From positions 43,853 through 107,852 of the forward strand of contig DATLYW010000037.1 in assembly GCA_035574315.1 (NCBI GenBank): a stretch of DNA of 64,000 nucleotides. Reading direction: 5' to 3'. Made by a program: the position numbers and the translations under genes. Each line of letters begins with the position of its first letter. The stretch's first letter is position 1. Source of the stretch: Candidatus Zixiibacteriota bacterium (lineage in GTDB: Bacteria > Desulfobacterota > Binatia > UBA9968). The notes beneath the pieces were generated by a model that was not told the DNA's origin, did no database searches, and worked only from the letters and a program-made list of their open reading frames with translations. This document shows positions 3,012 through 30,449 of the stretch, piece by piece.

Positions 3012-3046
3012 TTCGTTTCTCCTCCTCCTTAGAGACCGCAGGCCGG

Positions 3047-4213: not shown

Positions 4214-4223
4214 GGCGCGTCTC

Positions 4224-5213: not shown

Positions 5214-5583
5214 CGAAGAGGTCCTCCTTAACCTCAAGAGGTCGATATCGCCTCCTATCCAGTGAATTCGTGGCTGCACAGACGCCGTATCATGGCGTCT
5301 GGCGGCCGAGCTATGCCGTTCGCGTCGGTTCAATCGTCGAAATTTCAATCCAGGAACGCGAAACCGGAAAACCGCAAGCCGCCGTCCTCCAGGTCTCGGC
5401 CCATTTCCGCTGGATGTCTGCCTGCCATGAAGCTCCCTGGCACGTCGCGTTCCGTCGAGCCCCCTTCTTCTACTCCTTTACGGAAGCGATTGTCAAAACG
5501 GACGGCGATGGGCTCCCGTAGCTCGCCGGGACCGGAAGCGGGGAACCATGGACTACGGCATCTCCGTCGTGCCTGGGGATCGC

Positions 5584-6612: not shown

Positions 6613-7643
6613 GCCGCCGCTCCCTCGAGATTGTAGAGCCGTTTCGCGGCCCCGGCGAAGAGCCAACGTTTGGCTTCGTCGTCCAGATCCTCGCGCCGGG
6701 CCAGATGTTGGATGTTCTCGGGAAACTCGGAATCCCAGTGCGGGTAGTCAGACGCATAATAGACCGTCCGGTGGCCGAGGAGACCGGCTGCCGCCCCGAC
6801 GAGCGGCTCGTAGTCCTCGGCATGGAAAAAGATCCGCCCCTCCTTGAAGTACTCGCTCGGCTTGCGGCGGCAGTTCGGCGCCTCCACCCTGCCCCGTTTC
6901 TCCCACTCCTCGTTCATCCGGCCCATCCAGTAGGGGGCCCAGCTGCAACCTGCCTCCATGAAGGCCACCCGCAGCTTTGGGAAACGGTCGAAGACGCCGC
7001 GGAACATGAAGCTCGTGAGCTGCATCATCTGCGCGAAGGAATGCGACAGCGTGTGCACTTCGATGAACTGATCGAACAGGTCGCCGGCGAAGTAATGAGG
7101 GCCGCGAACGGTGGCGTGGATTCCCACCATGCAGTCGAGCCGCTCCGCTTCCTCGTAGATCGGCCAGTAGCTCTCGTGACCGAGGGGGAGGCGCAACCCG
7201 ACCGCGGGCAGCATGACGCCGACGAGCTTGAGCTCCCGGATCGCGCGGCCGAGCTCCTTGACGGCCTCGGGCACGTCCTGGAAGGGAACCAGTGCGACCG
7301 CCTTCAGGCGGGGGCTCACCTTCTGGAACTCTTCCGAGACGAAGTCGTTCCAGGCTCTGGCGTACGCGACCGCGACATCGGGCTCGCGGATCCAGCCGAT
7401 GCTGAGCCCGTTGGTCGGGTAGAGCACCGCCGTCGAAACGCCGCCCCGGTCCATGGCCTCGAGCCAGCTCTTTGCGTCGCGCGCCCGGGTGCCGAGCGTA
7501 CCGGATAGCGAACGGTCCCAGCTGTCCCGCGGCGTGAGCGTGGCCGCGCGCTTGCGGTAACGCTCCTCCATGTAGGGCTTGAGCTGGCTGTCCTCTTCGG
7601 TGATGTGTCCATCGGCGTCGATCACCTCGTAGCGTTCCGCCAT
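6609..7643 (-). CDS. Amidohydrolase-2 family protein, paralog 3
   Basis: Start at ATG 7641-7643 (MAERYEVIDADGHI), preceded by GGAGGA. HATV, EAGCSWAPYW and ASDYPHWD are conserved PF04909 features. Confidence 0.8.
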   Translation of the reverse strand: MAERYEVIDADGHITEEDSQLKPYMEERYRKRAATLTPRDSWDRSLSGTLGTRARDAKSWLEAMDRGGVSTAVLYPTNGLSIGWIREPDVAVAYARAWNDFVSEEFQKVSPRLKAVALVPFQDVPEAVKELGRAIRELKLVGVMLPAVGLRLPLGHESYWPIYEEAERLDCMVGIHATVRGPHYFAGDLFDQFIEVHTLSHSFAQMMQLTSFMFRGVFDRFPKLRVAFMEAGCSWAPYWMGRMNEEWEKRGRVEAPNCRRKPSEYFKEGRIFFHAEDYEPLVGAAAGLLGHRTVYYASDYPHWDSEFPENIQHLARREDLDDEAKRWLFAGAAKRLYNLEGAAA

Positions 7644-15522: not shown

Positions 15523-16275
15523 TCAAGGATGGGTGTCGCCGCCGGAGCCGCGGTCCGGCGCAAGGCGATCTTCGAGACCCAGGCGCCGGCCGACGAAGGC
15601 GGCCGCCGGAGGCAGGACGACCGCGAGCAGCCCGAGAAGAACCCACGGTCCGGGATCCCCGGAGGCAAAAGCGGCTTCGAGCTGGACGCTGGCAAAGGTA
15701 AGCGCGAGCCAGCCCGGAATGCGACCCAGCAGGCTGGCGCCGAAAAAGTCGGCGAAGCGTATCCCGGCGGCGCCGACGAAAAGGTTCACCAGGGTAAAGG
15801 GCGCGACAGGCAGCAGCCGGAGCACGAGGACCGTGAGAAAGCCGCGGCGTGCCGCGTGGCGGATGACGGACTTCAACCGCGGAGCGGTAAAGCCCTCCAG
15901 CACTTCCCGGCCCGCGAGCCGCCCGATGGTAAAGGCGACTGCGGCGCTGACGAGCCACCCGGCCAGCGCGTAGAGATTTCCCGCGATCGGCCCGAAGGTC
16001 ATGACGGTCGCGAGGGTCAGAGCCGTCGCCGGAACGAACGCGAGGCTGGCGAGGACGTAGGCGCCGACGACCACGTACGCGGCCGCCGGATCATTTCGGA
16101 TCGACTCCTGCCACGCGGCGATTGCCGCGGGATCGATCCAGGCGGCGAGCGGGGTCCAGCGCCAAAGCAGGAAGAGCAAAAGGAAAAGGAGCGCCGCGCC
16201 CGCACGCTTGCAGCGGCCAGCGAAGGCAGGTTCCGGCGTAATCGGAGCCGGCCGTGAAAGCGATTGATCGCGCAT
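15523..16275 (-). CDS. DedA/TVP38/TMEM64 (SNARE-associated) family membrane protein
   Basis: A multi-TM protein with the DedA-type re-entrant motif region (GxxxVxxxRLLPxxP). The exact start is uncertain. Confidence 0.65.
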   Translation of the reverse strand: MRDQSLSRPAPITPEPAFAGRCKRAGAALLFLLLFLLWRWTPLAAWIDPAAIAAWQESIRNDPAAAYVVVGAYVLASLAFVPATALTLATVMTFGPIAGNLYALAGWLVSAAVAFTIGRLAGREVLEGFTAPRLKSVIRHAARRGFLTVLVLRLLPVAPFTLVNLFVGAAGIRFADFFGASLLGRIPGWLALTFASVQLEAAFASGDPGPWVLLGLLAVVLPPAAAFVGRRLGLEDRLAPDRGSGGDTHP

Positions 16276-16555
16276 GTGGTTTCAGGTTAAAGGGTCGGCC
16301 CTGTTGGCGCAAGCCTTCCACGGGAGCCGCTGTGCGGTTTCCACTTCTTCGCGTCGATCCCGGATTCAGGTTGCCGTCGACGCGGGCACCCTGGCCGCAC
16401 CGCCTCCCCTGCGCAGCGGAGGCGACGATCGGGCCACTTCGATTAAACGCCGGTGCTCGATTGAACGGCGAAGCGGCGATAGGTCGACGAACGTTGCAAT
16501 AATTGACTGCGGGCAACCCCCGTGTTACGAAGCAAAAACTTCGCGAGGAAGACAC

Positions 16556-18043
16556 GTGGGGCTGAAATTCGAGGAGTTGAGATCGCTGGATCTGCGCCGA
16601 TGCGCCAGCGCAGGAGATATCGTCGCCGCGATGCGCCACTGCGCCTTCGGAGCGCGCATGCTGGGAGAGATGGCGACGACTCTGCACCAGTTGATCCTCG
16701 ACCGCGAGCGGCCTCTGGTGATCTACGACGGCCTGCCGGATTCCCCCCTGGGCCGTCTTCTCGCGCGCTTCGTCGAGCGCGGCTGGTGCCGCAAGATCCT
16801 CCGGCCCGAACAGTACGCCCGGCGCGCAAGCGGCAAGGAGACGGTGCTGGTGGTCGGCGGATTCTCTGAACGGCACGCCGACGCGGTCTACCGCAAGCCC
16901 TCGCGCGCGCTGTTCATCAATCAGTTCGATCTCGCCCGCCCCGGCCAGATCCGGGACGGCTACTTTCCCGACGCGGTCTTCGCCGATCCGCGGCTGGTGC
17001 TTCCGGTGATCGACTGCGCGCTTACGGAATGGCTGGACGGGCGGCGCTGGTCGGCGGGTCGGCTGCTCGCGAGCCTCGGCGCCTACGGCGGCGTCGCTTC
17101 GCAGGTCGCTCGGGCGGCAACCGCGCTGCAGCGGATGGTGCAGGATCGCGACTGTCTCCGCTTCCTGACCGTCAGCGGAGCGATGACGGTCGGCAAGATG
17201 GACCTGGTGATCTGCGACATGATCGAGCACGGTTTCATCGACGCGATCACCTCCACGGGCGCGCTCATGGCTCACGGCCTGGTGTCGTCGATCGGGCTCA
17301 AGCACTACAAGTACGATCCGTCCTACGACGACACGACGCTGGCGCGCCACCGCCTGAATCGCGTGACCGACACCCTGGAACCGGAAACCAACCTCGACAG
17401 CGTCGAAGAGGTGATCGGCAAGGTGATCGAGCCGATCGACGGATCACGCCCGATCAGCCCCGCGATCCTGAACCGGCACATCGGGCGATACCTCGCGCGC
17501 CGGTTTCCGCGGGAGCGCGGCATCCTGAAGTCCGCCTACCAGCACGGCGTTCCGGTCTTCGTTCCCGCCTTCGTCGACTCGGAGCTGGGAAACGATCTCT
17601 ACATCCACAACCTCAAGCGCCGCCGGCGCGGCCGCAAGCCGATCCTGATCGACCACGAGATCGACAGCAGGGAGCTGATTCGCCTGGTGACCGGGGCGAA
17701 GCGATTCGGCATCTTCACGATCGGCGGCGGCGTGCCGCGCAACAACGTCCAGAACGTCGCCCCCTTGATCGAGATCATCAACGAGCGGCTGGGAGCGATC
17801 TATCCGGAGCGCCGCTTCCACTACGGCATTCGCATCTGCCCCGACCGGCCGCACTTCGGCCATCTGTCAGGGTGCACCTATTCGGAAAACGAGTCCTGGC
17901 GCAAGGCGGCGCCCGACGGCGTCTACGCGGAGGTGCAGGCGGACGCGACGCAGGTGTGGCCGTTTCTCGTGAAATTTCTGATGGACAACACCGCGGGCTC
18001 CGGCCGGACCGCCCGCGACGGCGAAAGGAGGAAGAAACCGTGA
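16556..18043 (+). CDS. Deoxyhypusine synthase-like protein
   Basis: The DHS core motif VSGAMTVGKMDLVICDMIEHGFIDAITSTGALMAHGL...KHYKYD matches the archaeal/eukaryotic DHS GAMVPAGMR...IDVxVTTGANLTHDL...KHYKG. The likely start is GTG at 16556, preceded by GAGGAAG. It carries a roughly 120-aa C-terminal extension. Confidence 0.7.
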   Translation: MGLKFEELRSLDLRRCASAGDIVAAMRHCAFGARMLGEMATTLHQLILDRERPLVIYDGLPDSPLGRLLARFVERGWCRKILRPEQYARRASGKETVLVVGGFSERHADAVYRKPSRALFINQFDLARPGQIRDGYFPDAVFADPRLVLPVIDCALTEWLDGRRWSAGRLLASLGAYGGVASQVARAATALQRMVQDRDCLRFLTVSGAMTVGKMDLVICDMIEHGFIDAITSTGALMAHGLVSSIGLKHYKYDPSYDDTTLARHRLNRVTDTLEPETNLDSVEEVIGKVIEPIDGSRPISPAILNRHIGRYLARRFPRERGILKSAYQHGVPVFVPAFVDSELGNDLYIHNLKRRRRGRKPILIDHEIDSRELIRLVTGAKRFGIFTIGGGVPRNNVQNVAPLIEIINERLGAIYPERRFHYGIRICPDRPHFGHLSGCTYSENESWRKAAPDGVYAEVQADATQVWPFLVKFLMDNTAGSGRTARDGERRKKP

Positions 18044-19023
18044 AGCCGCGGGCCATCCTGGTGTTCGTCTTCTGGACGCTTTTCCATGCGGACGCGCGAT
18101 CGCAGGAAATCGTCGACATCGCCCACAGCGCGCTCTCGGCATCCCAGGCGATCCTGTTCGTCACCCGGGACGCCGGCATCTTCAGGAAGTACAACCTCGA
18201 ACCGCGCATCATTTACATCGTCGGCGGGCCCACCAACACGGCGGCCTTGATCTCGGGGAGCGTCGACTTCAACATCTTCGCCGGCCCGGCCTCGGTCGCC
18301 GCCAATCTCGGAGGCGCGGATACCGTGCTCCTCATGACGTTCGTGAACACCCTCGAGCACGCGGTCTTCACGCACCCGTCGATCACGAAACCCTCCGATC
18401 TCAGGGGCAAGCGGATCGGCATCGCCCGGCCCGGCTCGGCTGACCACTACGCGGCGACCGTCGCGTTGAGAAAATGGAATCTCGATCCGGAAAAATCGGT
18501 GAACCTCATCTCGATCGGCGGTCCACCCGACCGCTACCTGGCGCTCCAGGCCGGGCGCGTGGACGCTATCCTCATCCAGCCCCCGCTGACGACCCGGGCC
18601 CAGAAGGCAGGCTTTCAGCGGCTCGCCGCTCTCGTCGACTTCGGCGTCGACTACGTCGGTACCTCGCTCGGCACCACCCGCGCCGTGATCCGGAAGAAAG
18701 AAGAGCTGGTGCGCCGCGTGGTCTCGGCTTTCGTCGAGGGCATTCATTTCTACAAGACCAACAAGGAAGCGAGCCTCAGGACGATCGCCAGGCTCATGAG
18801 AACCCAGGACGCGGAGGCTCTGGAGGAAGCCTACAGCGCGTATGCCGTGAAGTTCATGGCGCGCGTTCCCTACCCGACCACCAGGGGAGTGGAAGCCGTG
18901 CTCGAGGACCTGGCCAAGAACAACCCGAAGGCCAAAGGCGCGGACCCCCGCCGATTCGTCGAGCCGCGATTCTTAAAGGAGCTCGAGGACAGCGGCTTCA
19001 TCAGCCGGCTCTACGGGAAATAG
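18040..19023 (+). CDS. NMT1/SsuA-like ABC substrate-binding protein (signal peptide)
   Basis: GTG start at 18040-18042 overlaps the TGA of the preceding gene (GTGA) and is preceded by AAAGGAGGAAG. It has an N-terminal hydrophobic signal and a periplasmic binding fold. Confidence 0.7.
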   Translation: MKPRAILVFVFWTLFHADARSQEIVDIAHSALSASQAILFVTRDAGIFRKYNLEPRIIYIVGGPTNTAALISGSVDFNIFAGPASVAANLGGADTVLLMTFVNTLEHAVFTHPSITKPSDLRGKRIGIARPGSADHYAATVALRKWNLDPEKSVNLISIGGPPDRYLALQAGRVDAILIQPPLTTRAQKAGFQRLAALVDFGVDYVGTSLGTTRAVIRKKEELVRRVVSAFVEGIHFYKTNKEASLRTIARLMRTQDAEALEEAYSAYAVKFMARVPYPTTRGVEAVLEDLAKNNPKAKGADPRRFVEPRFLKELEDSGFISRLYGK

Positions 19024-19042: not shown

Positions 19043-20761
19043 TCAGCGCGCGGGCTCGACGTCGAGCGCCGACCGTTCGGTGCCGACCGCGATCCGGTCG
19101 TGCACCTTGCGGATGCCGGATACCCCATGGGCGGCGCTCACGGCTGCGGCCCTCTGACTGTCGGATGCGACCCGGCCGCTCAGGTAAGCCGTGCTCCCGG
19201 TAACCGACACCTCGACACCGCGGACGGCCCGGGCATGGATCGCCTTGAGGATCTCGAATTCCAGCCGCTCGTCTCCGCGCTCGAGGTCGACTCGCGGGGC
19301 GGATTCGACGGCAACCCGGTCGATAACCGACGTGACAGCCGGCACCGCGCGCACCGCCCGCAGCGCCGCCTGCTTCTGGCGTTCGGTCGCCACGCGCCCC
19401 TCGAGACGGGCGATGCCGTCCTTGACGGAGACCCTGACCCCTTCGATCGCCCGGTTCGCGATCGCGCGCCGCGCCAGGTCCTCCGCGGAAGCCGAGCCAT
19501 CGTTTTTATCGTCCGCCGGGAAAGGCCGGGCTGGGGCCCCACGTTCCGCAGTTGAATCCTTCGGCGCCGCGACGGCTGCAGAATCGGACAGCGACTCCGT
19601 CGGGATCTCGCGTTGGGCGGGAACAGGGGCCTGGTGTTCCGCTTCCCGAAGCGTGCTCGCGCCGGGCGGAACAGAGAGCGGCGCGTCGCGGTCGACTCTC
19701 GCCTGCGCCAGGCGCCGGCTGAGATCGGAGAGCGCGGAGTCGAAGCTCGGATAGAGCATGGCGCCTGCGACCGCGGTCGCGACCGCCGCAGCCGTCCCGC
19801 TCCAGAGCGCCGCACGGTCTCCCCGCCGCCGCCGGCCGGCGACCGTCGCCTCGAATTCCGGGAACTCCCTCCTTCCCTCCCCCGCCTCCACGGAGAGAAG
19901 AGAGGTTGGCGACGGCTGCGTGTCGGCCGGAGCGGCTTTTTTCGCACCGGGAAGCAGGCGAAGATCGACGGCTGCCTCCTCCACCATCGCCCGGCTCACT
20001 CGCTGCCGCGTTGTGGCGTACCCGGTGACCAGTGCCTGATCGCAAAGCAGGTTGATCAGCCGCGGCACCCCGCGGCTGTATTTCCACACCGCGCGGACCG
20101 CCCCCCGATCGAAAAGCGCTTCTCGCCCGCACCCGGCCCGCCTGAGGCGCATGCCGATGTAGCTGTCGACTTCCGCTTCTCCCAGGGATTTCAACCGCAA
20201 CCACAACGCCACCCGCTGCCGCAACTGCCGCATGTCCGCTCCCGCCAACCGCTCCTCCAGCTCCGGCTGTCCCGCCAGCACCATCTGCAAGAGCTTTTCC
20301 TTTTCTGTCTCGAGATTGCTCAGCAGGCAGAGCCCCTCCAACGCCTCCTCGCTCAGCTCCTGCGCCTCGTCGATCAAAAGCGCCACCCGCCGACCCCTGC
20401 GCGCCCGGGACGCCAAATATTCCCGCAAACAGCCCCATGCCGCCCTCCACCCTTCGCCCATGTTCCCCAACCCAAGCTCCCCTCCTATCTCGCGCAACAA
20501 CTCGTGGAATCCGACCTGGCCGCTCACCCCGCTCACGCAGGCCACATCGACGTCCTCTGCCAGCGCTCCCATCAGCCGCCGCAACAGCATCGTCTTGCCC
20601 GTCCCGACCTCCCCCACGAGCACCACGATCCCCTTGCCTTGCTCCACTCCGTAGCGCAACCCCGCAAACGCCTCCCGATAGATCTCGTTCTCGTAATAAA
20701 ACCCAGGGTCCGGCGTCACGCTGAACGGCCGCTCGCGAAAACCGAAGTACTCCAGATACAT
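19043..20761 (-). CDS. ExeA/GspA-like AAA ATPase (AAA_16) with a central TM/linker and two C-terminal BON (OsmY-like) domains
   Basis: The N-terminus MYLEYFGFRERPFSVTPDPGFYYENEIYREAFAGLRYGVEQGKGIVVLVGEVGTGKTMLL matches ExeA. It is followed by a Pro/Ala-rich linker with a hydrophobic segment. Two repeats (VSVKDGIARLEGRVATERQKQAALRAVRAVPAVTSVIDRVAV and VEVSVTGSTAYLSGRVASDSQRAAAVSAAHGVSGIRKVHDRIAV) fit the BON domain. Confidence 0.75.
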   Translation of the reverse strand: MYLEYFGFRERPFSVTPDPGFYYENEIYREAFAGLRYGVEQGKGIVVLVGEVGTGKTMLLRRLMGALAEDVDVACVSGVSGQVGFHELLREIGGELGLGNMGEGWRAAWGCLREYLASRARRGRRVALLIDEAQELSEEALEGLCLLSNLETEKEKLLQMVLAGQPELEERLAGADMRQLRQRVALWLRLKSLGEAEVDSYIGMRLRRAGCGREALFDRGAVRAVWKYSRGVPRLINLLCDQALVTGYATTRQRVSRAMVEEAAVDLRLLPGAKKAAPADTQPSPTSLLSVEAGEGRREFPEFEATVAGRRRRGDRAALWSGTAAAVATAVAGAMLYPSFDSALSDLSRRLAQARVDRDAPLSVPPGASTLREAEHQAPVPAQREIPTESLSDSAAVAAPKDSTAERGAPARPFPADDKNDGSASAEDLARRAIANRAIEGVRVSVKDGIARLEGRVATERQKQAALRAVRAVPAVTSVIDRVAVESAPRVDLERGDERLEFEILKAIHARAVRGVEVSVTGSTAYLSGRVASDSQRAAAVSAAHGVSGIRKVHDRIAVGTERSALDVEPAR

Positions 20762-20770
20762 CCCGGCCTC

Positions 20771-22999
20771 TCACCCGGCGAGCTTGTCGCCCTCCCCGGA
20801 CGGAGCGCTCGCGCTGGCCCGCGCCGCAAGCACCGAAGCTCCCGGCGGGCGGCGTCGACCGTGGCGGCCGGTGAAGAGCGCGTGCAGGGCGCGCATGCTC
20901 CCCGGGTCGCAAAGCAGCCTTCTTTTCTCGGCCGCGGTAAGCGTCTCCAGTCCCAGCCTGAGCGCTTTCGACAGCAGTCCCCGATTCAGCGGCCGCGGAA
21001 CGCTTCCCGCCCGGCCGCGAAGACGGAGGTGAAGGGCGTTGGCGTACGGATCCATGACGGCACGGGCGAATCCGCGGGCATCGGCCCGCTGCGCTTGCAG
21101 CTCCGCCAGAGTCTTCTCGAGGTCGAGCAGAACGGGCGGCGGCGCCGATTCTTCGGGAATCACGAACAGGCGCCAGCGCCTGAAGCGGCGGCCCAGGGCG
21201 ACGCGGCTCGAATAGACGGAGAGCGTCGCCGAGAGCAACAGCGAGGCCGCTACGGGCGCGAGCCACCAGCCATAGAGCGTATTTACCCGCGTCACGATGC
21301 CGATCCAGAGAAGGGAAAAGAGCATCGACGTCCCGTGGTAGCGGAGGGCTTCCCCCCAGCCGATCTCGCAGTCCTCGCGCCGCTGGCTCCCCCACGCGAT
21401 CCGGCGACCGAGGAGCGTGGCGACGACGAACTTGCTGTGGAACCACATCCGGACCGGCGCGAGCATCATCGAGATCACGATCTCCAGCGCCACGCTGGCG
21501 CAAAGCGCCGCGGCTCCCCCGAAAAGATCGGCGCGGCGCTGCCGGACGATCAGCGCGAGGGCGAGGAGCTTCGGGAGCAGCAGGAGCACGGCGGTCGTGC
21601 CGACCAGCGCGATCGCCCACTGCGGATTCCACCGGGGCCAGAGCGGAAACAACGCGGGCTGCGGCGAGAAGTAGCTGGGCGGCAGGAGCGCGTCGGCGGT
21701 GATTTCGGCGGTGCACAGCACGAGAAACAGGAACCACAGCAGCGCCGAAACGTAGGACATCACGCCCATGAGGAAGACGTCGCGATGTCCGCCCCGGATT
21801 CCGTCGCCCGCCAGCAATTTCAGGTGCTGCAGGTTTCCCTGGCACCACCGCCGGTCGCGCTTCAGCTCGTCGAGCAATGTGGGGGGCGTTTCCTCGTAGC
21901 TACCGGACGGCTCGCAGAAAAGCCACACTTCCCAGCCCCCACGGCCGATCAGCGCGGCCTCGACGAAGTCGTGGCTCAGGATTTCCCCGCCGAGCGGAGG
22001 CTTTCCCGGCAGGCGCGGCAGGCCGCAGTGAGCGATGAACGGCGCGATGCGCAGGATCGCGTTGTGGCCCCAATAGCAGCTTTCGCCGAGCTGCCAGAAA
22101 TAAAGGCCGGCTGCGAGCATCGGCCCGTACGCCCGGTTGGCGAACTGCTGGACGCGGGCGAAGAGCGATTCCCGGTTAACGGTAGCGGGCAGCGACTGGA
22201 GAATGCCGACGCGCGGGTTGCGCTCCATCGTCCGCGCCATGCGGACGATGGTCTCGCCGCTCATCACGCTGTCCGCGTCGAGGACCGCCATGTAGTCGTA
22301 ATCCCTTCCCCAGCGGCGCAGGAAATCCGCGATGTTGCCGCTCTTCCGCTTGATCCTGGCCCTGCGGTGCCGGTAGAAAAGGCGGCCGGAAGCTCCCAGT
22401 CGGCGGCACGCACGGGCCCAGGCGAGCTCTTCCTCCACCTGGATGTCCGGATCCGAGGTGTCACTGAGCACGAAAAAGTCGAAGCGGTCGATCTCTCCCG
22501 TGGCTTCGAGCGAGCGATAGACGGCTTCCAGGCCCGCGAAAACGCGCTCCACGTTTTCGTTGCAAATCGGCATCAGAACCGCCGTTCGCGAGCGCAGCGG
22601 AGCCCGCTCGCTCCCGCGCTCGAGCCCCGCCGTCACCGTCCGGGTGCCGTGTTTCCACAGCGTGGCGAAGCCGGCAACGGCCGTCCAGAAGCCGAGCGAG
22701 ATCCAGGAGAACAGAACACCGAAAAGCGTAACGAGCATCAGCTCGGATCGGTCGAGCCATGGATAGGGAAAGGTCTGCGTCAGCGACCAGCTGGCGAGAA
22801 CCGTCTGCGATGAGATCAGAAGCGCCAGCATGGCCCGCCGGCGCCGGACGCGCCGCTGCCAGTGGGGTCTCGCCTCCGGCGCCGCCGGCTTCTCCAACGG
22901 CGTTCGGAGCGTCGCACGGGCGAGCGCGCGCCACAGGCGCCGGATCGGGTTTCTCTCCATCCGGGGCGGGGAAATCGATATCCGGTGGATCGCCGGCAT
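20771..22999 (-). CDS. opgH: Glucans biosynthesis glucosyltransferase H (OPG synthase)
   Basis: A GT2 membrane glycosyltransferase with DAD, RDRRWCQGNLQH (QxxRW) and flanking multi-TM blocks, collinear with MdoH. The start is uncertain (candidate ATGs at about 22999 or 22960). The track ORF extends to 23191. Confidence 0.85.
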   Translation of the reverse strand: MPAIHRISISPPRMERNPIRRLWRALARATLRTPLEKPAAPEARPHWQRRVRRRRAMLALLISSQTVLASWSLTQTFPYPWLDRSELMLVTLFGVLFSWISLGFWTAVAGFATLWKHGTRTVTAGLERGSERAPLRSRTAVLMPICNENVERVFAGLEAVYRSLEATGEIDRFDFFVLSDTSDPDIQVEEELAWARACRRLGASGRLFYRHRRARIKRKSGNIADFLRRWGRDYDYMAVLDADSVMSGETIVRMARTMERNPRVGILQSLPATVNRESLFARVQQFANRAYGPMLAAGLYFWQLGESCYWGHNAILRIAPFIAHCGLPRLPGKPPLGGEILSHDFVEAALIGRGGWEVWLFCEPSGSYEETPPTLLDELKRDRRWCQGNLQHLKLLAGDGIRGGHRDVFLMGVMSYVSALLWFLFLVLCTAEITADALLPPSYFSPQPALFPLWPRWNPQWAIALVGTTAVLLLLPKLLALALIVRQRRADLFGGAAALCASVALEIVISMMLAPVRMWFHSKFVVATLLGRRIAWGSQRREDCEIGWGEALRYHGTSMLFSLLWIGIVTRVNTLYGWWLAPVAASLLLSATLSVYSSRVALGRRFRRWRLFVIPEESAPPPVLLDLEKTLAELQAQRADARGFARAVMDPYANALHLRLRGRAGSVPRPLNRGLLSKALRLGLETLTAAEKRRLLCDPGSMRALHALFTGRHGRRRPPGASVLAARASASAPSGEGDKLAG

Positions 23000-23212
23000 C
23001 GAGATCGGCCTGGGTTTCCTTCGCTCCCCGGAGTGCGGTTCGCCGTGGCGCTGGCCGTCGCTCGTGAGCGACCATGGCTCGATGCCGGTCCGGCGCGAAT
23101 CCCCGTGACAGCGGAGCCAGCGTTCGGCCGCACGGCCGTCACGCCACACTCCGAGATTGTCCGACCGGTTGCGGCTGTCCGAACTGCCCATGAACCCCTG
23201 CTTCTCCTTGAA

Positions 23213-24784
23213 CTATGGATCGACCCGGTACGCCCAGGTCTCGGTCAGCGTGTCGCCGCCGTTTTGCAGGAACGCGCGGAGCTCGAGCGGCTTGTCGCCG
23301 GGCGGCCTGATTTGAAACGCCGCTCGCCAGCCGCGCGTGACCGGGTTCTTGAAGACGTTCTGCTGGACGAGCTGGCCGTCGGCTCCGACGCTGATGACCG
23401 CCCGAACCGGAGCGCCCGCTGAAAGCGCCCGCAGTTTCCCGCCGTCGAAATCGACGACGAAACGCAGCAGATCCTCCCGGTCGCCTCTGCCGATACGCGT
23501 GGCGGTGGCCCGGCCGGAAGACGGTTCCAGCGGGTCCTCGCTCTGGAACTGGATGCGATAGGCGAAGTCGATCGGCTGGCCCACCTGCGGCAGAGACTTC
23601 GGGATCCAGTAGGCGACGATGTTGTCGTTGATTTCCTTCGGGCTCGGAATCTCGACGAGCTTGACGTATCCGGATCCCCAGTTGCCGATCGGCTTGATCC
23701 AGGCGTTGGGGCGCAGCTCGGGACGGGTTTCGAGGTCCTCGTAGCTCTGGAATCGCCGGTCACGCTGGAGCAGCCCGAAGCCGCGCGGGTTGTCGACGTG
23801 GAAATAGCTCACGCGCAATCGTTCCGGGTTCACGAGCGGCCTCCAGATCCACTCGCCCGTGCTGGAGGCGATCAGCAAGCCGTCGGAGTCGTGGACCTCG
23901 GGACGCCAGTCGCCGGTCCGCGCCTTCTCTTCCCCGAAAAGGAACATGCTGGTCAGAGGGGCGATTCCCAGCTCGCGCACCCGCCTGCGCTCGAAGAGAC
24001 GCCCCCGCACCTCGACGACGGTTCGATCGCCGGGCCGTAACACGAATTCGTAAGCTCCCGCGAGGCTCGGGCTGTCGAGCAAGGCGTAGAGGCGGATTCG
24101 CTGCGCCGACCTGGCCGGGCGCTCGATCCAGAATTCCCTGAAACTGGGAAATTCCTCGCCGGTCGGAAGTCCGGTATCGATCGCCAGGCCGCGGGCGGAA
24201 AGCCCGAAGACCTGATGCCTCGCCACTGCGCGAAAATAACTGGCGCCGGCGAACACCAGCACGTGATTCTGCTCGCTCCGTCTGTAGAACGGGTAAGTGA
24301 TGCGAAAGCCGGCAAACCCGAGGTCGACGGGAACGCGGCTGCCGAATTTATTGCGGCCGTAGTCGAAAAGCTTCGGGGAAAACGGCACCTTGTAGACGCC
24401 GTTTTCGTTCAGGACGTTGATGCCCACGCTGTGGGTGTAATAGAGGCCGGGGTGGATGAACTGGATCTGAAAATTTCCCCCGGAATCGCGCCACAACGAG
24501 TGCTCGGTCCGGAAACGAATGTCGCGGTACTCGTCGTAGGTCACCTGCTTCAGGAAATCGGGGATCTGCTGCGGCGGCCGGAACGCCTCCGCGGCAAGCT
24601 TCCGGGCGATCCGCGACACCTCGTCGAAGCCGAAACGGGCGTTGCCGAACGCAGGGGGCGCAAGGAGAAAGAGCGCCAGGCTCAAGCAGGACGCGCGTTT
24701 CCTGATCACTGCGTGAAAAAAAGCGAAGCCGGAACTCCAGCGCCGTTGCGGCCGGCTGGCGGCTTCAGGAGAATTGGACGCCAT
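23213..24784 (-). CDS. opgG: Periplasmic glucan biosynthesis protein OpgG/OpgD (MdoG family)
   Basis: A roughly 520-aa MdoG-family periplasmic protein (FRFxxE...FLFGE...WRPxVHDSDGL). There is an N-terminal signal region with an RR pair (RPQRRWSSGF). The start is probably ATG 24784 (AAGGA RBS). Confidence 0.85.
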   Translation of the reverse strand: MASNSPEAASRPQRRWSSGFAFFHAVIRKRASCLSLALFLLAPPAFGNARFGFDEVSRIARKLAAEAFRPPQQIPDFLKQVTYDEYRDIRFRTEHSLWRDSGGNFQIQFIHPGLYYTHSVGINVLNENGVYKVPFSPKLFDYGRNKFGSRVPVDLGFAGFRITYPFYRRSEQNHVLVFAGASYFRAVARHQVFGLSARGLAIDTGLPTGEEFPSFREFWIERPARSAQRIRLYALLDSPSLAGAYEFVLRPGDRTVVEVRGRLFERRRVRELGIAPLTSMFLFGEEKARTGDWRPEVHDSDGLLIASSTGEWIWRPLVNPERLRVSYFHVDNPRGFGLLQRDRRFQSYEDLETRPELRPNAWIKPIGNWGSGYVKLVEIPSPKEINDNIVAYWIPKSLPQVGQPIDFAYRIQFQSEDPLEPSSGRATATRIGRGDREDLLRFVVDFDGGKLRALSAGAPVRAVISVGADGQLVQQNVFKNPVTRGWRAAFQIRPPGDKPLELRAFLQNGGDTLTETWAYRVDP

Positions 24785-25353
24785 AAAAGATAAGTCCTTT
24801 TTGCGTACGGGCAAGCCCCATGCCATCGGCGGGAGGCCGGGTAAGCTACCGAAACATGGTTCTTGTGTTGCGGCGGGCGGCGCTACGGCACCCTCGATGC
24901 AGGGGTTGCCCTACAGGCACGGAGGGAAAATCCGCGAAATCGGGAGCGGTCGCGCTGACTCGGTCCTGACGGAACAACAACCGGGACAGGCGGAACGTGT
25001 GACGCAATCCGGTTACGGCCGCGGCGATCCTCGCGGAGTCCGTCGAGATTTCTCCACTGCCGAAAGAACCGAGCTTCGGAGCCGGAGCGCGGCAAAGGGA
25101 GAGGAGGTCTTCCGCCCGCCGCTCGAGTCGTTGCGGGAATGGCCAGGGGAGGCGCGGAAGCGATCCCGAAGCCGGCGCGCTCGACTTCCCACCGCGCTGC
25201 GAGAAGTGCGGCTTTTGAGGCGCTGCGCACGATTTCGCGCAAAGGAACAGCGCCGTGCGGCACGGCGCCTCTCGATCCGCCTGGACAAGCGGCCGGAAAT
25301 CCTCTACAGAATGAAGGCGCACCTGAGGGCACAGGAGGGGCACGCTCGTCGCG

Positions 25354-26841
25354 ATGCGGCAGGATTTGATCCGCAAGGGGTGGTTTCCCGCGTTCCTTTT
25401 CCTTCTCCCGATCCTGCTCTACGCCGGCTGTACGACCGGCGTCATACCCGCCACGGGGGAAAAGCGTTATCTCGGCTACAGCTGGGAGCAGGAGGTCAAT
25501 CTCGGCCGCAAGGCGAGCAAGGAGGTGGCCGCGGCCTTCGGCCTCTATCGCGACCCGGGGCTCGAACGCTATGTCGAGGAAGTCGGACGACGGGTCCTGG
25601 CGCGAAGCCATCTCCGGCGGCCGGAAACGGACCCCGAGATTCGCAACACCCCGGTCACCTTCCAGATCCTCGACAGCCCCGTGATCAACGCCATGGCGCT
25701 TCCCGGAGGGCACATCTACGTCACCCGCGGAATGCTCGCTCACTTGAACAGCGAGGATCAGCTCGCCTCGGTTCTGGCGCACGAAATCGGCCACGTGAGC
25801 GCCCGCCATGCGTCGCGCCAGGCGTGGCAGCAACAGCTCGGACAGGGGCTTCTCCTGGGAGGCGCGCTCATCGGCCAGATCGTCGGCCTGCCCGCAGAAC
25901 AGATTCTCAACCTCGGAGGAGCCGCGGCGCAGCTGATCTTTCTCCGCTACAGCCGCGAGGACGAGCTGGAGGCGGACCGCCTCGGCGTGGAGTACACCTC
26001 GCTCGCCGGATACGACCCGACCGCGGTCACGGGACTCTTTGAATCCCTCGATCGAATGCAGGAGAAGGAAGGTCAGGGGCTGCCCAATTTTCTGTCGACG
26101 CACCCCAATCCAGGAGACAGGATCGCCCGAATCCGGCAGTGGAGCAGCGGCCGGCGGAGCGAGCGCCCGCGGGACGGCCGGTACTTCGACGCGATCGACG
26201 GCATGGTGTTGGGGGAAGATCCGCGACACGGGTTCGTCGAGCGCGACGTCTTTTACCATCCGGATCTGCGCTTTCGCTTTCCCGTCCCGCGTGGCTTCCG
26301 CGTCGTGAACCAGCCTGCACAGGTGATCATGGTCGAAGGCGCCAGGCGCGCGATCCTCGGCTTTGCGTCATCCCCTGAAAAATCGCCCGAGGCGGCCGCT
26401 GCGCGATTCGCCCGGCAAGGCGGACTGCGTGTTCTCGACAACCGCCGAGCGCGCTCGAACGGGCTTCCCGCCGTCGCCCTGCTGGCGGATGCGAAGATGC
26501 AGAACGGGCGGGTCGCGAGGCTGCTCGCTTATTTCGTCGAGTTCGGCGGAAACGTCTACCATTTCGTCGGCTATACCTCTCCGGAAGCTTTCGGCGCGTT
26601 CCGGGGCGTATTCCTGCGGACGATGGAGGGCTTCGGAGAGCTGCGAGACCCGGCCATGCTGAGCCGCCAACCCGTGCGCCTCGCAACGCTGCGCGTCTCC
26701 CGCCCGGCACGGTTTCGCGCCTTGATCCCCCGGGGCGCTCCCGGCGAAATGACCCCGGAGGATCTCGCCATTCTGAACCAGGTGCGGCTCGACCAAATGA
26801 TCGAGCCCGGCACGGTGCTGAAGTTTCCCCGTTCCTTTTGA
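25354..26841 (+). CDS. M48-family zinc metallopeptidase lipoprotein (BepA/LoiP-like) with C-terminal LysM-like domain
   Basis: Lipobox LLYAGC, HEIGH plus a downstream E (EDELEADR), and a C-terminal LysM-like segment (TPEDLAILNQVRLDQMIEPGTVLKFP). Confidence 0.8.
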   Translation: MRQDLIRKGWFPAFLFLLPILLYAGCTTGVIPATGEKRYLGYSWEQEVNLGRKASKEVAAAFGLYRDPGLERYVEEVGRRVLARSHLRRPETDPEIRNTPVTFQILDSPVINAMALPGGHIYVTRGMLAHLNSEDQLASVLAHEIGHVSARHASRQAWQQQLGQGLLLGGALIGQIVGLPAEQILNLGGAAAQLIFLRYSREDELEADRLGVEYTSLAGYDPTAVTGLFESLDRMQEKEGQGLPNFLSTHPNPGDRIARIRQWSSGRRSERPRDGRYFDAIDGMVLGEDPRHGFVERDVFYHPDLRFRFPVPRGFRVVNQPAQVIMVEGARRAILGFASSPEKSPEAAAARFARQGGLRVLDNRRARSNGLPAVALLADAKMQNGRVARLLAYFVEFGGNVYHFVGYTSPEAFGAFRGVFLRTMEGFGELRDPAMLSRQPVRLATLRVSRPARFRALIPRGAPGEMTPEDLAILNQVRLDQMIEPGTVLKFPRSF

Positions 26842-26973
26842 TCCCCGGCGGCCGCCCCGTCGAATGGAATCCGCCGCGCGATGTTGTATGATGGAGCGGG
26901 CCTGCGCCTTCCGGCCTTCGGCGTCCGGCCAACGGAGCGTCATCCGGCCGATGCCGAGCGCCGGTCGAAACTC

Positions 26974-28113
26974 ATGGCATCCCATTCATCCGAGAGTGCG
27001 ACCCTGTCGCAGGGAGCCGACGGGACGGTCCGCTGCTCCGGCGCGTGGAAGGCGGGCAACGTGCCGGAGCTGGAGCGCCGGGTCGCCGCGCTGCGGCCGC
27101 CCGCCGCCGGCGGGCAGATCTGGGAGATGGGCGGGATCACCGCGATGGACACAGCGGGAGCCTGGCTCGTGCGCCGCTCGATTCGCCGTTTGGAGCAACG
27201 CGGCGCGCGCGTGGAGCTTCGCGGCCTCCGTCCGGAGTTCGACGAGCTGATCCGCTGGGTGTCGCGCAACGGCTCGCCGGAGGATACCGCGGCCGGCAGG
27301 CGGAAAGCGGGTCTCGTCGAAAGCCTGGGCCGCCTCGCGTGGGAGATTCAGGCCCAGGCCTTCGGCTTTCTCTCGTTCCTCGGACAGAGCATGCTGGTGC
27401 TGGCGCGGCTCGCCGTTGCGCCGCACCGGATGCGCTGGCAGGCGTTTTTTTACAACCTCAAGGCCGGCGGACTGGAGGCGATTCCGATCGTGGGTTTGCT
27501 TTCGTTCCTGATGGGAATCGTCATCGCGTATCAGGCGGCGGTGCAGCTGCGGCCGTACGGGGCGAACGTCTTCATCGTCGAGTTCGTGGGAATCGCCATG
27601 CTCCGGGAGATCGCCCCGGTGATCACCGCGATCATCGTCGCCGGCCGCTCCGGCTCCGCTTACACGGCGCAGATCGGTACGATGGAAGTGACCGAAGAGG
27701 TCGACGCGCTGCACACGCTGGGAATCGGGCCGCTGGAGCTGCTTGTCGTCCCGAAGGTGCTCGCGCTCGCGCTGGCGCTGCCGCTGCTGACGGCGTTCGC
27801 CGACGTGACCGGCGTGCTCGGCGGAATGGTCGTGGCCAGCACGCAGCTGAACGTCCCTTTCGACGTGTTCCTCGACCGCTTCAAGAGCGTCATCTCCCTC
27901 ACCAATTATCTGATCGGCGTCGGCAAAGCCCCCGTCTTCGCGTTCATCATCGCGATGATCGGGTGCTACCAGGGATTTCGGGTGAGCGGCAGCGCCGAAA
28001 GCGTCGGCCGCCATACCACGATCAGCGTCGTTCAGGCCATTTTTCTCGTGATCGTCTTCGACGCGCTCTTTTCGATCCTCCTCAGCTGGATGGGGATCGG
28101 GCTCTTCGCGTAA
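26974..28113 (+). CDS. MlaE/YrbE-type ABC permease with an N-terminal STAS (MlaB-like) domain
   Basis: The N-terminal roughly 100 aa form a STAS-like domain (VRCSGAWKAGNVPELERRVAAL...MDTAGAWLV). The rest is an MlaE permease core. The start is probably ATG 26974 (MASHSSE). Confidence 0.75.
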   Translation: MASHSSESATLSQGADGTVRCSGAWKAGNVPELERRVAALRPPAAGGQIWEMGGITAMDTAGAWLVRRSIRRLEQRGARVELRGLRPEFDELIRWVSRNGSPEDTAAGRRKAGLVESLGRLAWEIQAQAFGFLSFLGQSMLVLARLAVAPHRMRWQAFFYNLKAGGLEAIPIVGLLSFLMGIVIAYQAAVQLRPYGANVFIVEFVGIAMLREIAPVITAIIVAGRSGSAYTAQIGTMEVTEEVDALHTLGIGPLELLVVPKVLALALALPLLTAFADVTGVLGGMVVASTQLNVPFDVFLDRFKSVISLTNYLIGVGKAPVFAFIIAMIGCYQGFRVSGSAESVGRHTTISVVQAIFLVIVFDALFSILLSWMGIGLFA

Positions 28114-28118
28114 CGGCC

Positions 28119-28907
28119 ATGGATTCGAACGGACGGGAAGCGGTCGTGGAGGTCCGGGACGTCAGCACCCGCTTCGGCGCCGCCGTGGTTCACGATCGCA
28201 TCAGCCTGACGGTGTACCGCGGCGAGATCTTCGCAGTGGTCGGCGCCAGCGGCAGCGGCAAGTCCATGCTGCTGCGCGAGATCATCATGCTGCGCCGGCC
28301 GGACGCCGGGTCGATCCGGCTGCTGGGCCGCGAGGTGACGACACTGCACGAGACGGATGCGCTCGATCTCAAGCGTCGCATCGGCGTGCTCTTCCAGCAC
28401 GGCGCGTTGTTCAGCGCTCTGACGGTGGCGGAGAACATCGCCGTGCCGCTCCGGGAGCATACCCGCTTGAGCGCGGACTTCATTCGCGAGATAGTGGCGA
28501 TCAAGCTCGACTGGGTACGCTTTCCGCGCGACAGCGTTCACAAGTACCCGAGCGAGCTGAGCGGAGGCATGCTCAAGCGGGCGGCTCTGGCCCGGGCCAT
28601 TGCGCTGGATCCGGAGCTGATTTTTCTCGACGAGCCCACGGCCGGCCTGGACCCTGCCAGCGCGTCGGCGCTGGACGAGCTGATCCGGCAGCTGAAATCG
28701 ATTCTGGGCCTCACGGTAGTGATGGTGACCCACGATCTGGATTCGCTCTGGCAGGTCGCGGACCGCGTCGGCGTTCTCGGCGACGGGAGAATCCTTCAGG
28801 TCGGCACGATGGAGGAGCTGTCGCGGTCGGACCACCCGGCGGTGGCGGAATACTTTCGCGGCGTCCGCGGCCGCGCGGCGCGGGAGCAGGCATGGAACCA
28901 AAGGTAA
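28119..28907 (+). CDS. MlaF-type ABC transporter ATP-binding protein
   Basis: Walker A GASGSGKS, signature LSGGMLKR, Walker B LIFLDEP. The start is ATG 28119. Confidence 0.85.
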   Translation: MDSNGREAVVEVRDVSTRFGAAVVHDRISLTVYRGEIFAVVGASGSGKSMLLREIIMLRRPDAGSIRLLGREVTTLHETDALDLKRRIGVLFQHGALFSALTVAENIAVPLREHTRLSADFIREIVAIKLDWVRFPRDSVHKYPSELSGGMLKRAALARAIALDPELIFLDEPTAGLDPASASALDELIRQLKSILGLTVVMVTHDLDSLWQVADRVGVLGDGRILQVGTMEELSRSDHPAVAEYFRGVRGRAAREQAWNQR

Positions 28908-29815
28908 GCTACACCCTGGTCGGCGCCTTCGTTCTGGTCTTCGGAGCGGTGCTGATCGTCATCGTCCTGTGGCTGGTGAAAAAAGGGCCGCAGGTTCGCT
29001 ACCGGGATTATCGGGCTTATTTTCGGGAGTCGGTGTCGGGATTGAACGAAAACGCGGCGGTGAAATATAAAGGAGTCAACGTCGGCAGGGTGAAGGAGAT
29101 CCGGCTCGACCCGCAGGATCCCGAACGGGTCCGGCTCACCCTCGAGATCGACGCCGGCGCCCCGATCAAGGAAGATACCGTGGCGACGCTGGGCAGCCAG
29201 GGATTGACCGGTTTGGCGTTCGTCGAGCTTTCCGGCGGGACGCGCGAGGCTCCGCTGCTGGAGGCGCGGCCCGGCGAGGACGTTCCAGTGATCCGGACGC
29301 GGCCGTCGCTGTTCATGCGGCTGGATCAGTCGGCCTCCACGCTGCTCGCAAACCTCAACCGGGTCGCCGAGAGTATGGCCGAGCTGACCGACGAGGAGGG
29401 TCGCCGGTCGCTCAGGCAGATCGTCCGGGATGTCGGCCATCTGGCCGCCGGCCTGAAGGAGCGCGAAAAGCAGCTCGGGCAGCTCTTCGCCAGCGCGGAC
29501 CGGACGCTCGAGAGCGCTCGCGAGGTCACGGCCGAGCTTCCGGCCCTGGTCGCGCGCGTGTCGCGTGCGGTCGGCGCGCTCGAGGAGATGGCGGAGCAGA
29601 TCGGCCGGACCGGCAAAACGGTGGACGCGATGGTTGCGGGGAGCCGGGAAGACGTCCGGCGCTTCACCAACGAGACGCTGGCAGAGACCGGCGTTCTCGT
29701 CGCCGATCTGCGCCGCCTGACCGAACGGCTGCAACGAATTGCACGCGAGGTGGAGCAAAATCCGAGGTCGCTCCTCTTCGGCCGCCGGCCGCCCCCGCCG
29801 GGGCCGGGGGAATAG
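28892..29815 (+). CDS. MlaD/MCE-domain protein
   Basis: An N-terminal TM helix, then an MCE domain (VKYKGVNVGRVKEIRL), then a coiled-coil tail. It overlaps the mlaF stop by 16 nt. Confidence 0.8.
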   Translation: MEPKVSYTLVGAFVLVFGAVLIVIVLWLVKKGPQVRYRDYRAYFRESVSGLNENAAVKYKGVNVGRVKEIRLDPQDPERVRLTLEIDAGAPIKEDTVATLGSQGLTGLAFVELSGGTREAPLLEARPGEDVPVIRTRPSLFMRLDQSASTLLANLNRVAESMAELTDEEGRRSLRQIVRDVGHLAAGLKEREKQLGQLFASADRTLESAREVTAELPALVARVSRAVGALEEMAEQIGRTGKTVDAMVAGSREDVRRFTNETLAETGVLVADLRRLTERLQRIAREVEQNPRSLLFGRRPPPPGPGE

Positions 29816-29816
29816 G

Positions 29817-30449
29817 ATGGGGTCGCCCGAAATCCGCCGGATCGTTGCGCTCACCCTGGCCGTCGCCTGGGTCTCGGCCTGCGCGGTTTTTCCCGAGGCA
29901 CCGAATCGCCCGACCAGCCGTTACCGGCTCGCCCTTGACGGCGCCAACCCGGTGTCGTGGCCGCAGTGCCCGTCTCCCGCCGGCGTCCTGGTCGTGAGCG
30001 CGCTGCGCGACGAAGCCGCAGTAGCCTCCAACGGGATCGCATACCTCCTGCGGCCGCACGAGGTGAAATACTACGCCTACAGCCAGTGGGTGGAGGACCC
30101 CGCGCGCCAGCTTCTGCCTCTCGTGATCCAGGCCCTCGAGCGGACCAACTGCTGGACCACGGTCACGCACGCGGAAAGCGGGTTGCGCGCGGACTATCGG
30201 CTCGACGCGGAGATCCTGCAATGGCAGCAGGAATTCTTTCCCACACCGAGCCGGGTGCGGCTCGCCTTTCGCGCCGAGCTGGTGGCGCCGTCGGAGCGCG
30301 CCATCGTCGCCTCCCGACGTTTCGAGCTGGTCGAGGAGGCCGAAACCGGCGACGCCTACGGGGCGGTCATCGCGAGCAACCGGGCCGTCAACCGCTGGCT
30401 GCTGGCGCTCGCCGAGTGGGCGAAGGCGGCCGCTTCGCAGAGACGCTGA
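29817..30449 (+). CDS. ABC-type transport auxiliary lipoprotein component (DUF330-like)
   Basis: ATG 29817 ([22 protein letters not shown], lipobox), about 210 aa. It sits immediately after the MCE gene, as is typical for this family. Confidence 0.55.

Follow-up and report, generated by a model that had tools for sequence, protein, structure and literature searches.

Osmoregulated periplasmic glucans (OPGs) have been described from gene sets in which opgG and opgH are joined by opgB, opgC, opgD and opgE. The known accessory genes all encode enzymes. Among them are a succinyltransferase, OpgC (PMC4726272), an OpgG paralogue that is a glucanase of family GH186, OpgD (PMC10514313), and a phosphoethanolamine transferase, OpgE (PMC3818809). 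In E. coli the substituents of OPGs derive from membrane phospholipids (PMC3818809). Work on OPG operons has been confined almost entirely to Proteobacteria. Here we describe an opgGH locus from a 64,000-nucleotide stretch of contig DATLYW010000037.1 (the window hereafter), which belongs to a bacterial metagenome-assembled genome (MAG). Its opgG and opgH are clear orthologues in the usual order. The third gene, which encodes a 572-amino-acid (aa) ATPase with a BON module (the ExeA-BON gene), is unlike the described OPG accessory genes, none of which encodes an ATPase or a BON protein.

For this third protein the closest described systems are ATPases of other pathways. ExeA/GspA, the type II secretin assembly factor of Aeromonas and Vibrio, which acts together with ExeB/GspB, has the layout that is predicted for the third protein: an N-terminal cytoplasmic ATPase of the AAA_22 type, a single membrane-spanning segment and a large domain in the periplasm that touches a layer of the envelope. 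The ATPase domain of ExeA is required for complex formation, and its periplasmic domain binds peptidoglycan, whereupon large multimers assemble (PMC4098917). The nearest curated ATPase family is TIGR03015, the XrtA/PEP-CTERM-associated ATPase, which belongs to polysaccharide rather than secretin loci. BON is a lipid-binding or chaperone-type fold, and the second BON domain of DolP binds anionic phospholipid (PMC7806268). Two tandem BONs, as in the window protein, are found in OsmY and DolP (YraP) of E. coli. However, OsmY is soluble, DolP is an outer-membrane lipoprotein and both lack an ATPase, whereas the BON pair of the window protein sits on a predicted inner-membrane helix and a long linker.

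For an ExeA-superfamily ATPase that carries a BON module, opgGH is a new genomic partner. Among the papers searched, none joins OpgH or OPGs with ExeA or a BON domain, and ATPase fusions go unmentioned in a review of BON architectures (PMC11747388).

The predicted operon and its third protein

In the window a gene for OpgG (PF04349) is followed on the same strand by one for OpgH (MdoH equivalog), an order also present in at least 40 related loci. OpgH additionally matches the Pfam families Glyco_trans_2_3 and Glycos_transf_2. The ExeA-BON gene begins 9 nucleotides (nt) after the opgH stop codon. All three open reading frames (ORFs) lie on the minus strand, where a first-pass annotation, made from the letters of the DNA alone, had placed them, and the gap is exactly the one that it had given. 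The gap contains a GAGG motif, likely a ribosome-binding site, and such a junction implies co-transcription and coupled translation. A terminator scan predicted no terminator-like site at the junction. The sequence of the locus thus implies a three-gene operon, opgG-opgH-exeA(BON) (Table 1). At third codon positions the GC content of the ExeA-BON gene (its GC3) resembles that of the neighbouring genes.

Profile searches support the domains that had been proposed for the 572-aa protein. They place AAA_22 at residues 41-172 (E 8e-26), together with AAA_16, and find BON in two stretches (E 2.5e-17). The Walker A and Walker B motifs are intact and, like several conserved Arg, Asn and Gln residues, invariant across 72 homologues. 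Hence, the ATPase is probably active. An AlphaFold model built on the alignment of these 72 sequences has a mean predicted local distance difference test score (pLDDT) of 74.8, with values above 90 over residues 1-270. In a Foldseek search with these residues, the best matches are MuB, ORC/Cdc6 and TnsC (E down to 1.7e-12, target-normalised TM-score about 0.72-0.75). These are ATP-dependent assembly switches, not unfoldases. They are soluble and act on DNA; their likeness to the window protein goes no further than the fold and a probable way of working by nucleotide-gated oligomerisation.

The ATPase is followed by a single hydrophobic segment with four arginines (RRRR) on its N-terminal side. 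The segment is found at residues 317-337, its Kyte-Doolittle score peaks at residues 318-336, and AlphaFold predicts a helix at 316-336. A hydrophobic stretch is present at this position of the alignment in homologues too. Hence, we infer a bitopic inner-membrane protein with its N-terminus inside. The score of the segment, 1.49, is only moderately hydrophobic and weighs against this topology. The linker behind it is predicted to be disordered (pLDDT below 50 over residues 359-422) and varies greatly in length and sequence among homologues. Both segment and linker are as the first-pass annotation described them.

The same annotation had read the end of the protein as two BON domains in place of the usual peptidoglycan-binding domain. 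This reading stands: PF04972 scores 63.3 bits (Pfam cutoff 27) over the two stretches, Pfam finds no PG_binding_1 (PF01471) in the protein, and residues 434-556, which span both BONs, align to residues 40-169 of E. coli OsmY (PDB 8rjx, E 3.4e-5). The protein is not an OsmY equivalog, since it reaches 28.7 bits where NF007858 requires 174. BON1 and BON2 are 46% identical. Most family members have a single BON, to which BON1 of the window protein aligns. In the relative P0002 the two BONs are 82% identical to each other, which points to a separate and recent duplication there. Sequence comparison therefore indicates that the BON pair of the window protein arose by duplication inside the ExeA-BON family, and that the BON doubled more than once in the family. 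A phmmer search with the BON part alone (1.84 billion representatives) brought up mainly multi-BON proteins about 500 aa long and has little bearing on the fusion to an ATPase.

The layout of the protein invites a conventional reading. JGI names homologues 'general secretion pathway protein A', and both AAA_22, present in E. coli GspA as well, and the predicted bitopic layout are common with ExeA (PMC4098917). The protein could be a canonical ExeA/GspA assembly factor for a secretin, of a type II secretion system (T2SS) or of a type IV pilus, encoded elsewhere in the genome. We consider this very unlikely. E. coli GspA has a C39-like domain and PG_binding_1, whereas the window protein lacks both and has two BONs in the position of PG_binding_1. 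BLASTP aligns the two proteins in the Walker A region only (E 0.04). Neither a gspB-like gene nor a secretin, T2SS or pilus gene is present among the 43 window ORFs scanned, and the gene downstream is a convergent one for an NMT1-type binding protein. The first-pass label of a canonical ExeA/GspA ATPase is therefore right at the level of the superfamily only. Judged by its sequence, the protein belongs to the ExeA superfamily of ATPases but carries another periplasmic module, and it resembles ExeA only loosely.

TIGR03015 suggests another reading, in which the protein is a PEP-CTERM/exosortase-associated ATPase that serves exopolysaccharide export. It is the best curated match and aligns with the ATPase domain from end to end (residues 1-267, 252.7 bits, E 4e-75). 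Relatives of the window protein score between 118 and 293 bits, those from Binatia 287-293. Yet all these scores remain below the family cutoff of 324.5 bits, and the model covers the ATPase alone, without a transmembrane-plus-BON extension. We also found no exosortase, PEP-CTERM or Wza/Wzc-type gene among the neighbours or the window ORFs scanned. A role in exopolysaccharide export is accordingly a far-fetched one for this protein.

An anti-phage defence NTPase was tried as a candidate and rejected; the best PADLOC match is TRIP13, with 23 bits and in the P-loop region only.

Linkage to opgGH in three OpgH lineages

The linkage to opgGH becomes visible when loci are collected by their opgH gene. 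An OpgH-centred scan of metagenome contigs yielded 65 loci, and look-ups from OpgH homologues, which added the linked loci L152 and L153, raised the total to 68. An ExeA-like gene adjoins opgGH in 19 of the 68. In 15 of the 65 scanned loci, tblastn places it directly after opgH and on the same strand; in L113 and L114 it is adjacent too, but divergent from opgG. Pfam confirms the combination of AAA_22 and BON in L086, L089, L096 and L114.

Many of the linked loci come from Binatia and carry more than one copy. Two to three tandem ExeA paralogues follow opgH in L087, L089, L094/L096, L132, L152 and L153, with three copies on some contigs. The first one or two paralogues end in BON and the last, as Pfam shows, in SH3_3; their mutual identity is 50-77%. 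In L153, an NCBI Binatia MAG, opgG and opgH are followed after a 7-nt gap by an ExeA-BON gene (3788-5398) and an ExeA-SH3 gene (5659-7224), and the ENA contig L152 has the same array. The flanks of the Binatia loci vary (NMT1, methyltransferase, DUF427, MEDS), the opgGH-ExeA block being their one conserved part.

The ExeA-BON gene after opgH in L152 (10586-12203) is split into ORFs of 104 and 433 aa, either by a frameshift or by an assembly error. An insertion sequence (DDE_Tnp_1) lies about 0.9 kb past the end of this array.

How often the linkage arose can be judged from a neighbour-joining tree of OpgH (556 columns, 200 bootstrap replicates). The Binatia sequences form a clade, called Y here, in 200 of 200 replicates, and every Y contig with enough downstream DNA has one to three tandem ExeA paralogues. 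The window groups with L151, and L113 with L114, each in all 200 replicates; the latter pair and the unlinked L108 also group in 200/200. Only eight replicates place the Y clade and the window as sisters. The ExeA adjacency is therefore found in three OpgH lineages that the bootstrap separates, namely the Y clade, the window's lineage and L113/L114, and not on this contig alone, which the first-pass annotation had named as grounds for giving up its proposal.

The ATPases are not of one kind either. In a neighbour-joining tree of the ATPase domain, the window, Y-clade and L114 proteins do not group together, and the L114 protein represents a second ExeA-BON subfamily of about 75 clusters. Three OpgH lineages, at least two ExeA-BON subfamilies and two gene orientations, together with a close unlinked relative of each linked lineage, fit repeated recruitment and loss better than chance or simple inheritance. 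On this comparative evidence the ExeA-BON gene would be a facultative partner of opgGH.

One could still suppose that the gene stands next to opgH by chance, or that a mobile or defence-type STAND/AAA NTPase landed there. The insertion sequence near the L152 array and weak Pfam matches to nSTAND and NACHT families fit such an origin. The matches are below the cutoffs, however, the adjacency recurs in three lineages, and the GC3 of the gene is that of its neighbours. An accidental landing therefore seems extremely improbable to us.

A search that starts from the ATPase gives a different picture. Among 5.8 billion proteins searched with the window protein, about 30 clusters share the AAA_22 and BON architecture at 37-43% identity; other relatives have SH3_3, SPOR or PG_binding_1 instead of BON. 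Their database names are 'AAA family ATPase', 'ExeA family protein', 'BON domain-containing protein' and 'general secretion pathway protein A'. We examined 85 ExeA-family loci, 80 of them from a scan of species-representative genomes, and searched them with tblastn for OpgG and OpgH. By itself this ExeA-centred search would wrongly refute the synteny, because only the OpgH-centred scan revealed it.

Several observations nevertheless speak against a firm tie between the two. None of the 85 loci has OpgG or OpgH near the ExeA-family gene. Seven ExeA-BON loci came from searching with the protein itself, and all of them are orphans in unrelated contexts, as six context look-ups show; the remaining 78 ExeA-family loci have no opgGH nearby. 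P0002 and L006, the two-BON proteins most similar to the window protein over the full length, are among the orphans. Even the closest OpgH relative, L151 (OpgG 78% and OpgH 71% identical, GC content 66%), has no ExeA gene and instead has an ATP-binding cassette (ABC) transporter after opgH. About 34 other opgGH loci likewise lack an ExeA gene within the sequence examined. The Y clade is shallow (OpgH identity of at least 73%), and its many contigs hence count as one lineage. Both trees are neighbour-joining trees only, and the ATPase tree has no support values. Finally, the tandem BON, on which the first-pass reading built, is not conserved in the ExeA-BON family. The co-occurrence of ExeA-BON and opgH, which that annotation proposed to check across genomes, is thus seen in part from the side of opgH (19 of 68 loci) and not from the side of the ATPase (none of 85).

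Two further candidates in these loci were discarded. The C-terminal tail of OpgH (about residues 698-772) does not mark a link to ExeA; it is kept in many unlinked loci and belongs to the canonical MdoH model. In L005 and L007, partial ORFs lie upstream of the orphan genes; they were considered as diverged opgH tails, and no similarity was found.

The envelope neighbourhood and a putative role

The opgGH loci have a second recurrent neighbour. A homologue of MlaC (PF05494, E 5e-49) directly follows opgH in 14 opgGH loci (L100, L103, L107, L109, L111, L113, L114, L116, L117, L118, L122, L135, L149 and L150), often with DUF4168 next; in L109 mlaC occupies positions 2567-3226. This linkage of opgGH to mlaC may be of interest in its own right. 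In L114 opgGH lies between the ExeA-BON gene and mlaC-DUF4168. In two loci without opgGH, an ExeA-BON gene of the L114 type is divergent from an mlaC-DUF4168 operon. The divergent operon at L155 (1-9653), at the P0299 locus and at L156, all devoid of opgGH, includes mlaC, DUF4168 and SLT genes and also a Gly-zipper protein, a response regulator and a BON-only protein. As a rule, a gene for a beta-helix protein (Pect-lyase_RHGA_epim) comes after the L114-type ExeA-BON gene of these loci.

Thus all three pairings occur: opgGH with ExeA-BON, opgGH with mlaC, and ExeA-BON with mlaC. Given these pairings, the phospholipid origin of OPG substituents (PMC3818809) and the binding of anionic phospholipid by the BON of DolP (PMC7806268), one may reasonably hypothesise a lipid/glucan envelope module. 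Since its pairing with opgGH recurs in three lineages of uncultured soil bacteria, the ExeA-BON gene is probably a lineage-specific envelope accessory of putative function, centred on Binatia. Whether the protein has a true functional tie to the OPG/envelope module we regard as evenly balanced.

If there is such a tie, a mechanism can be sketched from the domains. The ATPase would be a switch of the MuB/TnsC/ORC type within the ExeA/GspA superfamily, an ATP-gated scaffold anchored by one transmembrane helix. By analogy with Aeromonas ExeA, ATP binding could drive the protein to assemble itself into a multimeric inner-membrane platform. The BON module, held on a flexible linker of about 85 residues, would be the periplasmic grip and take the place of the peptidoglycan-binding domain. 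Its contact would most likely be a membrane lipid or an envelope protein, since DolP and OsmY have this fold, a phospholipid-binding and chaperone-type one. The ExeA-BON protein, which would share a transcript with OpgG and OpgH, might organise or tune their machinery, or else the glucan-filled space of the periplasm. It may be part of a Binatia-centred envelope neighbourhood that also recruits mlaC.

Another account sees in the protein a general factor for the envelope or for stress that has no more than a transcript or a neighbourhood in common with opgGH. It would work alone, for example as a membrane tether or as a periplasmic holdase anchored in the inner membrane, and its position would reflect envelope co-regulation rather than a part in making glucans. 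Most family members, the closest two-BON relatives of the window protein included, are orphans in varied contexts, L151 does without the gene, and the L114-type subfamily adjoins mlaC even where opgGH is absent. All of this is what a general factor would lead us to expect. The account has more difficulty with the gaps of 9 nt (window) and 7 nt (L153) after opgH, and with the three OpgH lineages and at least two ExeA subfamilies in which the genes came to lie side by side, which is hard to obtain without selection for linkage. We take a general factor to be possible but on the doubtful side.

In its strongest form, the tie to opgGH would make the ExeA-BON protein and the SH3_3 paralogues of Binatia dedicated, ATP-gated partners of OpgH and OpgG that couple glucan synthesis to the state of the membrane. 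The BON would read or grip phospholipid, and mlaC would be the recurrent third neighbour. So specific a role is unlikely. If true, it would add a new class of OPG accessory and give a first function to the large pool of non-secretin ExeA-like proteins in environmental bacteria.

Two suggestions of the first-pass annotation fare differently here. It had proposed an envelope or osmotic module coupled to OPG synthesis or export. The envelope part of this idea survives, but the osmotic part is an association through OsmY's name. High osmolarity induces OsmY, whereas OPGs accumulate at low osmolarity. It had also suggested that the third protein stands in for a missing OpgC or OpgD. This is implausible, because the protein has only ATPase and BON domains, with no acyltransferase and no glycoside-hydrolase (MdoG-like glucanase) domain.

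The reproducible link of opgGH to a predicted membrane-spanning ATPase and, in related loci, to mlaC suggests a larger envelope-maintenance module of which glucan synthesis, in Binatia and their relatives, forms a part. Soil metagenomes abound in ExeA-like ATPases whose periplasmic domain has been swapped (BON, SH3_3, SPOR or PG-binding), and these are called 'general secretion pathway protein A' by default. The window locus shows that this label is unsafe. With opgGH, there is now a concrete partner for testing the function of an ExeA-like ATPase, although the hosts are uncultured.

Gene map and flanking genes of the window

Table 1. Features of the opgGH-ExeA-BON locus and its surroundings, in positions of the window.
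Feature	Position	Strand	Description
opgG (mdoG)	23213..24826	-	Periplasmic glucan biosynthesis protein; gene 1 of the predicted operon; PF04349 MdoG, E 2e-188, residues 65-534
opgH (mdoH)	20771..23191	-	Membrane glycosyltransferase family 2 (GT2) glucan synthase; gene 2 of the predicted operon; NF003958 MdoH, 848 bits (cutoff 419)
opgH/ExeA-BON junction	20762..20770	-	9 nt, TGA-gaggccggg-ATG; GAGG Shine-Dalgarno-like motif
ExeA-BON gene	19043..20761	-	Gene 3 of the predicted operon; 572-aa ExeA-family AAA+ ATPase, predicted bitopic, tandem BON
AAA+ domain	19952..20761	-	Residues 1-270, predicted cytoplasmic; Walker A GEVGTGKT (50-57), Walker B LLIDEAQ (128-134)
Predicted transmembrane helix	19751..19816	-	Residues 316-337; RRRR on N-terminal side; single hydrophobic segment
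Juxtamembrane helix and linker	19487..19750	-	Helix 340-358 and Pro/Ala-rich disordered linker (about 359-425) in the AlphaFold model; predicted periplasmic
BON domain 1	19280..19486	-	Residues about 426-494; PF04972 stretch; pLDDT about 90, confident at 426-476
BON domain 2	19082..19273	-	Residues about 497-560; best PF04972 stretch; weaker in the AlphaFold model
opgG/M48 divergent intergenic region	24827..25353	.	Likely location of the operon promoter, inferred from the ORF map
M48 peptidase gene	25354-26841	+	Divergent from opgG
mlaE	26881-28113	+	Mla-like operon; STAS domain fused at the N-terminus
ABC ATPase (mlaF)	28110-28907	+	Mla-like operon
mlaD	28892-29815	+	Mla-like operon
ABC_trans_aux lipoprotein gene	29739-30449	+	Mla-like operon
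Long ORF, NMT1-type binding protein	17029-19023	+	Converges on the ExeA-BON gene; overlaps the preceding gene
589-aa protein	16274-18043	+	Deoxyhypusine-synthase domain (PF01916) at residues 264-567 only

The starts of the first two operon genes can be read in two ways: opgG begins with the ATG at 24826 or alternatively at Met15 (24784), and opgH has an alternative start at Met65 (22999). The OpgG of the window is 69-70% identical to that of Binatia. Scanning for promoters between opgG and the M48 peptidase gene gave no match to the sigma-70 consensus and no usable promoter; this DNA has a GC content of 67%. Beyond the peptidase gene, 2 kb upstream of opgG, lies the Mla-like operon. No mlaC was seen within the window.

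On the other side, 19 nt separate the stop codons of the ExeA-BON gene and of the NMT1-type gene. In the ORF of the latter, the NMT1 match is confined to the C-terminal part, from about residue 370. Hence, the binding-protein gene probably starts near 18050-18100. The N-terminal 260 residues of the overlapping 589-aa protein are without any Pfam match.

The 572-aa protein is 100% identical to a protein of an NCBI MAG labelled Zixibacteria, where it is annotated just as 'AAA family ATPase'. NCBI labels the source MAG 'candidate division Zixibacteria', and the nearest named homologues of OpgH and of the ExeA-BON protein come from Candidatus Binatia MAGs. Genes for NMT1-type binding proteins, Amidohydro_2 and TctC are abundant in the window, as they are in Binatia loci. 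The Zixibacteria label of the source MAG may be wrong.

In two other opgGH loci (L099:8678-10120 and L115:2909-4186), the gene after opgH encodes a 'putative glucoamylase' of family PF10091 (E 1e-75). We take this family to include endo-beta-1,2-glucanases, which would presumably fit the processing of OPGs.

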